Positions 6,517-6,773 of a DNA stretch of 13,872 nucleotides are shown piece after piece. The stretch lies in the IMG/VR virus record IMGVR_UViG_2874915312_000001, one strand, 5' to 3'. Position 1 is the first letter of the stretch. Each line of letters opens with the position of its first letter. The notes under the pieces were generated by a model. That model searched no databases. It was not told the origin of the DNA and was given only the letters and a program-made list of their open reading frames with translations. The DNA comes from a virus (taxonomy: Duplodnaviria > Heunggongvirae > Uroviricota > Caudoviricetes). Made by a program: the position numbers and the translations under genes.

Positions 6517-6773
6517 TCAGGGATGTTCAATATATTTGTCCATTTCTAACCGGACACCCAACATCATCAACATTCCTTCCACCACCCCCTCGGCTTTTTG
6601 TAGCTTCTTTCCTATATAACCATCGCGTCATCGTCACAGCATTGCGGGCGGGATTTTACTTTTGAAGGGATTAATCCCTTAAAACCGGCAGCAATGGACG
6701 ACCAGGTCACATCCTCATGATTATTAGCCACCCACGCGCCCCAGCGCTCAAGAACCTGCTGAATATCACGCAT
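6517..6773 (-). pseudogene. Q: late antiterminator Q (phage 21/933W type) with internal deletion and frameshift
   Basis: N-terminal frame: [53 protein letters not shown], then a stop at 6612-6614. A different frame from 6612 down to 6517 reads [35 protein letters not shown], which matches the Q C-terminus. About 40 codons of the middle are absent. Confidence 0.7.

Follow-up and report, generated by a model that had tools for sequence, protein, structure and literature searches.

A 124-bp direct-repeat deletion in the late antiterminator gene Q of a decayed Shigella flexneri prophage

The Prophage Remnant in mlrA

Judged by its gene content, the window (the whole stretch of 13,872 nucleotides analysed here) carries what heavy decay has left of a lambdoid prophage in Shigella flexneri. 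The element is inserted in mlrA (yehV), a known integration site of Stx phages, and a fragment of this gene occupies positions 1–534 on the minus strand (NCBIfam NF011617). Only the last 62 of the 428 codons of a tyrosine integrase gene remain (609–795, minus strand, by comparison with relatives), where the gene is cut by IS911 (796–2047). An IS600 fragment (2042–2702) and ISSfl3 (2708–5463, plus strand) follow; the latter, a complete IS66-family element with tnpA, tnpB and tnpC recognized from their ORFs, RefSeq names and Pfam IS66 domains, terminates the late region. Beyond it lie, all on the minus strand, the holin gene, a tRNA cluster, the Q pseudogene, ninH and an interrupted helicase gene, and the right end of the window is taken up by the beginning of a further IS600 copy (13505–13872).

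The interruption by ISSfl3 can be placed to the codon. In intact relatives, a 209-aa ORF (L009:9406–10035), which has no Pfam hit, begins MKHEEMNQRFNHLENE and sits between the holin and lysozyme genes; it is followed by genes for lysozyme, Rz, ParDE, KilA-N, terminase and portal. In the window, the first 11 codons of this ORF (MKHEEMNQRFN) are left at 5464–5494 on the minus strand, and identity to the relative breaks at 5463. Since ISSfl3 abuts codon 11, the lysozyme gene is absent rather than truncated. A previous reading of this DNA, made from the sequence alone (below, the sequence-only reading), had taken both int and R to be truncated. This is right for int, while the gene that was cut at the late end is the 209-aa ORF and not the lysozyme gene.

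The DnaB-type replicative helicase gene (7315–8706, minus strand) carries a CAG-to-TAG change at codon 135 (Q135*, window 8304–8302), which splits it into ORFs of 134 and 327 aa. The nonsense codon is present in both of the S. flexneri drafts introduced below and absent from the E. coli O121 relative (L003); in VL7S7, FDAARGOS_943 and loci L008–L011, the helicase is annotated at its full length of 463 aa. Over 5.6 kb, 10 of the 12 substitutions that separate the window from the O121 relative are nonsynonymous, Q135* included. Together with the nonsense codon itself, this excess fits relaxed selection, though the counts are low.

Integration in mlrA, the int remnant, the helicase nonsense codon and the lack of lysozyme, Rz, terminase and structural genes characterize the element as a defective remnant. 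The sequence-only reading had held the loss of Q, along with the truncations, responsible for a prophage that cannot be induced. With 62 codons of int left, all morphogenesis genes missing and the helicase interrupted, this attribution does not stand, and the loss of Q is one lesion among many.

The Q Pseudogene and Its Family

The Q pseudogene extends over 6517–6773 on the minus strand and comprises the 257 bp that remain of an ancestral 381-bp gene, as delimited by alignment with L003:6628–7008 and by a match to Pfam PF06530. Translation from the ATG (6773–6771) towards 6517 yields 53 aa (MRDIQQ...DDDAMVI) before a TAG at 6614–6612, so that the N-terminal remnant with its stop codon covers 6612–6773. 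The C-terminal remnant, at 6517–6611, corresponds to ancestral codons ~96–126, the end of the protein that carries the recognition helix; it has ~31–35 codons, lies in another frame and ends at the original TGA (6519–6517). The figures of the sequence-only reading, i.e., 53 N-terminal and ~30 C-terminal codons in different frames, a joint at ~6612 and ~40 missing codons, are all borne out by translation and alignment.

The gene upstream, ninH (6766–6966, minus strand; PF06322), is intact, overlaps the start of Q by 8 bp and is identical to the RefSeq ninH at L003:6435–6635. The placement of Q is that of its family, after the nin region and before a promoter-like block, a tR' hairpin and a holin gene, with the promoter and pause element in this comparison assigned by conservation and consensus only.

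PF06530 has been called the Q21/Q933W family in a preprint on the structure of phage 21 Q (Q21). The intact allele found in relatives matches the whole profile (positions 1–118 of 118; 182 bits), and the 53-aa fragment matches positions 1–53 of 118 only, with 96 bits. Scores of this size for both forms argue that the resemblance to Q is not due to chance. By sequence, the gene in the window is thus a fragment of a PF06530 member and not a complete member. Its assignment to the phage-21/933W type is confirmed by the PF06530 match and by the comparisons with the two namesake proteins, and the internal out-of-frame deletion that had been proposed along with it by alignment with the intact gene.

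The closer of these is the 933W-type Q (144 aa; phage P13374, HE664024, CCG06185.1), to which the intact ancestor is 86% identical over 124 residues. The two loci also share the position of Q between ninH and the PR'-tR' block, the conserved promoter-terminator block itself and the tRNA genes after tR'. They differ in that the ancestral allele has 126 aa and lacks a C-terminal extension of ~18 residues, that the window copy is short of 124 bp and out of frame, and that stx genes are missing after the tRNAs. Phage 21 Q (162 aa; PDB 6P18, 6P19, 6JNX) is more distant. It belongs to PF06530, its similarity to the intact allele is detectable with HMMER (E=4e-8, residues 8–85 aligned with Q21 20–98) and its mechanism is taken here as the model; identity is ~30%, and the window keeps only the part equivalent to Q21 ~13–66.

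The Deletion and the Direct Repeat

When 5400–7400 was compared by megablast with 5,426 complete E. coli genomes, eight matches of 99.6–100% identity were obtained, and all eight genomes are 124 bases longer than the query over this interval. In the alignment with the best match, E. coli O121 201805972 (L003:6628–7008), the difference resolves into a single gap of exactly 124 bp, or 41 1/3 codons, outside which ~600 aligned bases contain no differences at all. A 111-bp query across the junction gave the same picture: nine complete E. coli genomes contain both of its halves at 100% identity, 124 bp apart. The intact gene is also split at the same two points in six further Shigella and E. coli loci.

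The intact gene (381 bp, 126 codons) encodes WP_001204832.1, named ‘antiterminator Q family protein’. This allele, which was seen on at least 1000 contigs and occurs in E. coli O121, EIEC-like strains and S. flexneri, shares every retained nucleotide and the same neighbours with the window copy; the difference is the 124 bp that it has between two copies of GATGGTTATAT. In several hosts, a fuller late operon follows it, with genes for holin, the 209-aa ORF, lysozyme, Rz, terminase and portal.

The 11-bp direct repeat GATGGTTATAT begins at nt 150 and again at nt 274 of the intact gene, a spacing of 124 nt, and is the only direct repeat of at least 8 nt in it. The deleted length equals this spacing, and exactly one copy has been kept, at the deletion junction (6614–6624, minus strand, by comparison with the intact gene). 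Endpoints within the sole repeat of this size, combined with a length equal to its spacing, are the signature of slipped-strand deletion. At the level of sequence, the comparison thus identifies the 124-bp loss as a RecA-independent slipped-strand (direct-repeat or short-homology) deletion between the GATGGTTATAT copies. As 124 is 3 x 41 + 1 and not a multiple of three, the frame shifts; the retained repeat is now read as ATG GTT ATA TAG, so that translation stops at once after 53 residues.

This is ordinary prophage decay by a mechanism that is already known. Direct-repeat deletion pseudogenes of Shigella and of cryptic prophages likewise have their endpoints in a short repeat of which one copy is kept, and likewise occur in IS-riddled elements with other inactivating mutations. 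Against this background, the Q deletion has nothing unusual and is one further instance.

The same site has also changed in another way. A separate Q allele of S. flexneri (P0005, 129 aa) carries an in-frame 9-bp duplication, encoding DGY, exactly at the second GATGGTTATAT copy, which indicates that this site is prone to recurrent slippage.

Inheritance of the Junction

A deletion seen in one assembly may be an artefact, the genome truly having an intact Q. The rarity of the junction speaks for this reading: the 111-bp query has no contiguous match in the 5,426 complete E. coli genomes, and the junction was not found in GTDB species representatives or JGI metagenome contigs either. An exact look-up of the 53-aa product, however, retrieved two NCBI drafts of S. 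flexneri, L004 (GCA_000213715.2) and L005 (GCA_000213735.2), both of which contain the identical 49-nt junction GCTGTGACGATGACGCGATGGTTATATAGGAAAGAAGCTACAAAAAGCC. Identity to the window is 100% over 7.9 kb in one of the draft contigs and 99.94% over 11 kb in the other. The presence of the same junction in two independently assembled drafts makes a sequencing error unlikely. In addition, the window and both drafts share the linked helicase nonsense codon along with the Q allele, which argues for common descent and hence for inheritance rather than error.

The nature of the change points in the same direction, a loss of 124 bp being unlike a homopolymer-type error. A direct repeat of 11 bp is shorter than usual assembly k-mers, so that collapse of the repeat during assembly is unlikely as well. 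Taken together, we regard an artefact as very improbable, and the concern about a sequencing error at the junction, which the sequence-only reading had itself raised, falls away. The deletion allele is known from three assemblies only (the window and the two drafts), and these probably represent one lineage.

That reading had also named the possibility of a naturally short Q with a continuous frame in its relatives. Here, the relatives have a continuous frame of 126–144 codons. In the phage collection, the match spans at least 80% of the intact 126-aa Q in one frame in 399 of the 400 records with a homologue, which indicates that the window Q is not a natural short variant, and every genome whose flanks are identical carries the 381-bp form. 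A functional short Q, or a two-part Q rescued by programmed frameshifting or re-initiation, could appeal to the score of the 53-aa fragment, which is above the Pfam cut-off at 96 bits, and to the fact that the fragment keeps the part from which Q21 builds its exit-channel ring. Even a perfect frameshift, however, would leave 41 codons missing, i.e., the equivalents of helices H3–H5. We therefore consider it next to inconceivable that the locus encodes a working short or two-part Q.

Re-initiation of the C-terminal part was considered separately and rejected. According to the frame analysis, stop codons shut the C-terminal frame just upstream of the junction, and its first start is an internal GTG/ATG ~22 codons before the end.

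What the Protein Has Lost

The structural work on Q21 provides the frame in which the deletion can be read. In that protein, H3–H6 constitute a sigma-R4-like body, within which the H5–H6 helix-turn-helix attaches to the Q-binding element and H4 and H5 touch the flap-tip helix; an L1-H2-L2 ring narrows the RNA-exit channel. Contacts to DNA are made by S93, K94, H95, R113 and A124–R128, and those to the flap-tip helix by K79–H90 and I97; substitutions at both kinds of contact residue lower antitermination.

Residue 53 of the window Q aligns with Q21 I66, and the fragment corresponds to Q21 residues ~13–66 (H1, L1, H2, L2 and the start of H3), as mapped by a sequence alignment at ~30% identity that can be trusted no further than Q21 residue 98. 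The N-terminal helix and the L1-H2-L2 segment are accordingly kept at alignment level (residues 8–53 to Q21 20–66), and the retained range covers the equivalents of Q21 W26, V27, S29, V39, K42, S46 and T54. The sigma-R4-like body is not kept, as the deletion has taken codons 54 to ~95 and what follows has lost its frame. These deleted or out-of-frame codons align with Q21 67–98 or lie beyond it; the DNA contacts at 93–95, 113 and 124–128 are missing, and all contact residues of Q21 for DNA and for the flap-tip helix lie beyond I66, where the retained segment ends. The alignment suggests that the equivalents of H3–H5 have been lost and that of H6 put out of frame.

On this evidence, the deletion allele is almost certainly null, a conclusion which does not depend on the details of the helix mapping. 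The DNA specificity of this Q type differs from that of Q21, since the TGAGCA direct repeats of the Q21 binding site are absent from the PR' region of the window.

The Region Downstream of Q

Between the Q stop codon and the first tRNA gene lies a conserved block, which the window shares with 933W-like Stx1c and Stx2a phages, where it is found in the Q-to-stx intergenic region. A putative PR' was placed in this block by conservation (6452–6488, minus strand), with a probable −35-like hexamer TTTACG at 6488–6483 and a −10-like hexamer TATTCT at 6466–6461; a further −10-like motif, AAGAGT at 6457–6452 on the same strand, is likewise conserved and was placed as a candidate sigma-dependent pause element. 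In a promoter scan, PR' stayed below the threshold, its hexamers matching the consensus at 8 of 12 positions.

Downstream, a tR'-like intrinsic terminator of the form AAACCCGCC-UCCG-GGCGGGUUU plus U-tract is predicted at 6406–6430 (minus strand) from RNA folding and conservation. It folds into a 9-bp hairpin, of which Stx phages share the stem and T-run but not the loop, and its sequence is 100% identical in relatives with an intact Q. Folding and conservation with Stx phages thus agree with the previous view of the tR' hairpin as intact. A terminator scan did not call tR', perhaps because the stem is able to extend into the T-run, which is a guess.

The tRNA cluster (6007–6317, minus strand) consists of four genes, for Ile (CAU, lysidine type), Arg (UCU), Thr (UGU) and Gly (UCC), according to ARAGORN, Rfam and the RefSeq annotation of identical sequence. 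The first of them (6241–6317, minus strand) was called Met (CAT) by ARAGORN and is a tRNA-Ile in RefSeq on the identical gene; we take it to be a lysidine-type, ileZ-like tRNA as in Stx phages. A promoter-like site, TTTGCA-18-TATTAT, lies at 6356–6327 between tR' and this gene, so the cluster may not depend on Q. One of the two drafts parts from the window within tRNA-Gly (window 6006), and the segment concerned (L005:8769–9439) has no match elsewhere in the window; either another rearrangement or a chimeric contig could account for it.

The last surviving late gene is a class II holin gene (5499–5714, minus strand), which is intact with 71 codons (PF04971); for the identical DNA, RefSeq names the product ‘class II holin family protein’. 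From what is established for this family, we infer that transcripts from PR' now end at tR'. The sequence-only reading had foreseen the silencing of the holin and of downstream genes in general. This description is too broad, as only the four tRNA genes and the holin remain before ISSfl3 begins at 5463.

Neutral Decay or Selected Loss

With high confidence, we interpret the window Q as a dead 933W-type late antiterminator gene in a decayed S. flexneri prophage, made null by a slipped-strand deletion in what was probably neutral decay. As the sequence shows, slippage removed the 124 bp between the GATGGTTATAT copies, with a frameshift, the TAG and the 53-residue peptide as consequences. By the alignment, this peptide is without the H4 surface for the flap-tip helix and without the H5–H6 helix-turn-helix for the Q-binding element in PR'; lacking most of the sigma-R4-like body, it could not be recruited to polymerase paused at PR'. 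Transcripts from the preserved PR' would then stop at tR', whose hairpin is intact, to give a short RNA, and read-through that depends on Q would no longer reach the four tRNA genes and the orphan holin gene.

Whether the lesion brought any advantage is a separate matter. Neutral decay is the most likely explanation, in an element already deprived of the remainder of its late operon, of the greater part of int and of a working helicase. As an alternative, the deletion might have been selected. By killing Q, it would keep the host safe from an orphan holin that is switched on through Q in SOS or derepression, and it would lock PR' to the short tR'-terminated RNA, which could act in the manner of StxS. 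An intact holin gene downstream of tR', with neither an endolysin nor other late genes, would suit this idea, as would the perfect conservation of the PR'-tR' block. There is also a precedent in Stx phages, in which the PR'-tR' transcript yields a functional sRNA, StxS (PMC7547250).

Several observations weigh against it. Both the O121 relative and VL7S7 are likewise cut after the holin, with IS911 directly following it, and nonetheless keep an intact Q, which argues against a consistent pressure to lose the gene. The PR'-tR' RNA of the window matches no Rfam family: a search of 6300–6560 at the gathering threshold and at permissive E-values returned terminator-like partial hits only, so the analogy with StxS is only a lead. 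Neither an immunity region nor an early promoter was recognized in the window, which means that Q may not have been expressed in any case. The nonsynonymous excess and the helicase nonsense codon, finally, point to a general relaxation of selection. We consequently judge a selected loss unlikely.

A more elaborate version can be imagined on functional analogy. The loss of Q would then be a domestication step that uncouples derepression from the orphan holin for good and leaves the constitutive PR'-tR' unit as a dedicated, StxS-like small-RNA gene, and the 53-residue ring peptide may in addition bind RNA polymerase and interfere with the Q of a co-resident prophage. This we hold to be quite unlikely, and neutral decay is retained as the likeliest explanation of the deletion. 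For the order of the ISSfl3 insertion and the Q deletion, FDAARGOS_943 and L013 were compared with the window, from which their IS arrangements differ.

Significance

Beyond correct annotation, the importance of this locus is small, the biology of Q being already well understood. The 53-aa product has been deposited with the two drafts as ‘antitermination protein Q’ for S. flexneri K-227 and K-272 (EGK22712.1/EGK36319.1), and the 53-codon ORF should be flagged as a pseudogene in both. The locus further illustrates cleanly how a Shigella prophage remnant riddled with IS elements can suffer a deletion between copies of an 11-bp direct repeat, and its junction could serve as a lineage marker. Finally, with Q inactivated by nature, it would allow the PR'-tR' short RNA, the phage tRNA cluster and the orphan holin to be viewed without read-through.

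Other Features of the Remnant

The host gene at the insertion site has suffered as well. The 5' end of mlrA has been replaced by the prophage junction, and the comparison of window 1–795 with E. coli VL7S7 reveals a 4-bp insertion, the mlrA frame shifting near the window start and the ORF ending early. Through these two changes, the curli regulator has apparently been inactivated twice.

The IS911 copy in the window is without 22 terminal bases that are present in the O121 relative. In VL7S7, a full int-xis region occupies the int site, and IS911 joins int-xis to the holin end, which implies an older IS911-mediated rearrangement.

Two regions on the minus strand, 11335–11523 and 11991–12179, each contain an isrK Hfq-binding RNA in tandem with a C4 antisense RNA (Rfam RF01394 and RF01695; 62 and 80 bits). 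Each copy lies within or adjoins one of two duplicated ash/Rha-type ORFs, so that a P1/Gifsy-like antisense control module is present twice. On the plus strand, opposite to the early genes, a Gp49 (HigB/RelE-like) and HTH_3 antitoxin pair at 12219–12882 looks like a toxin-antitoxin module within the remnant.
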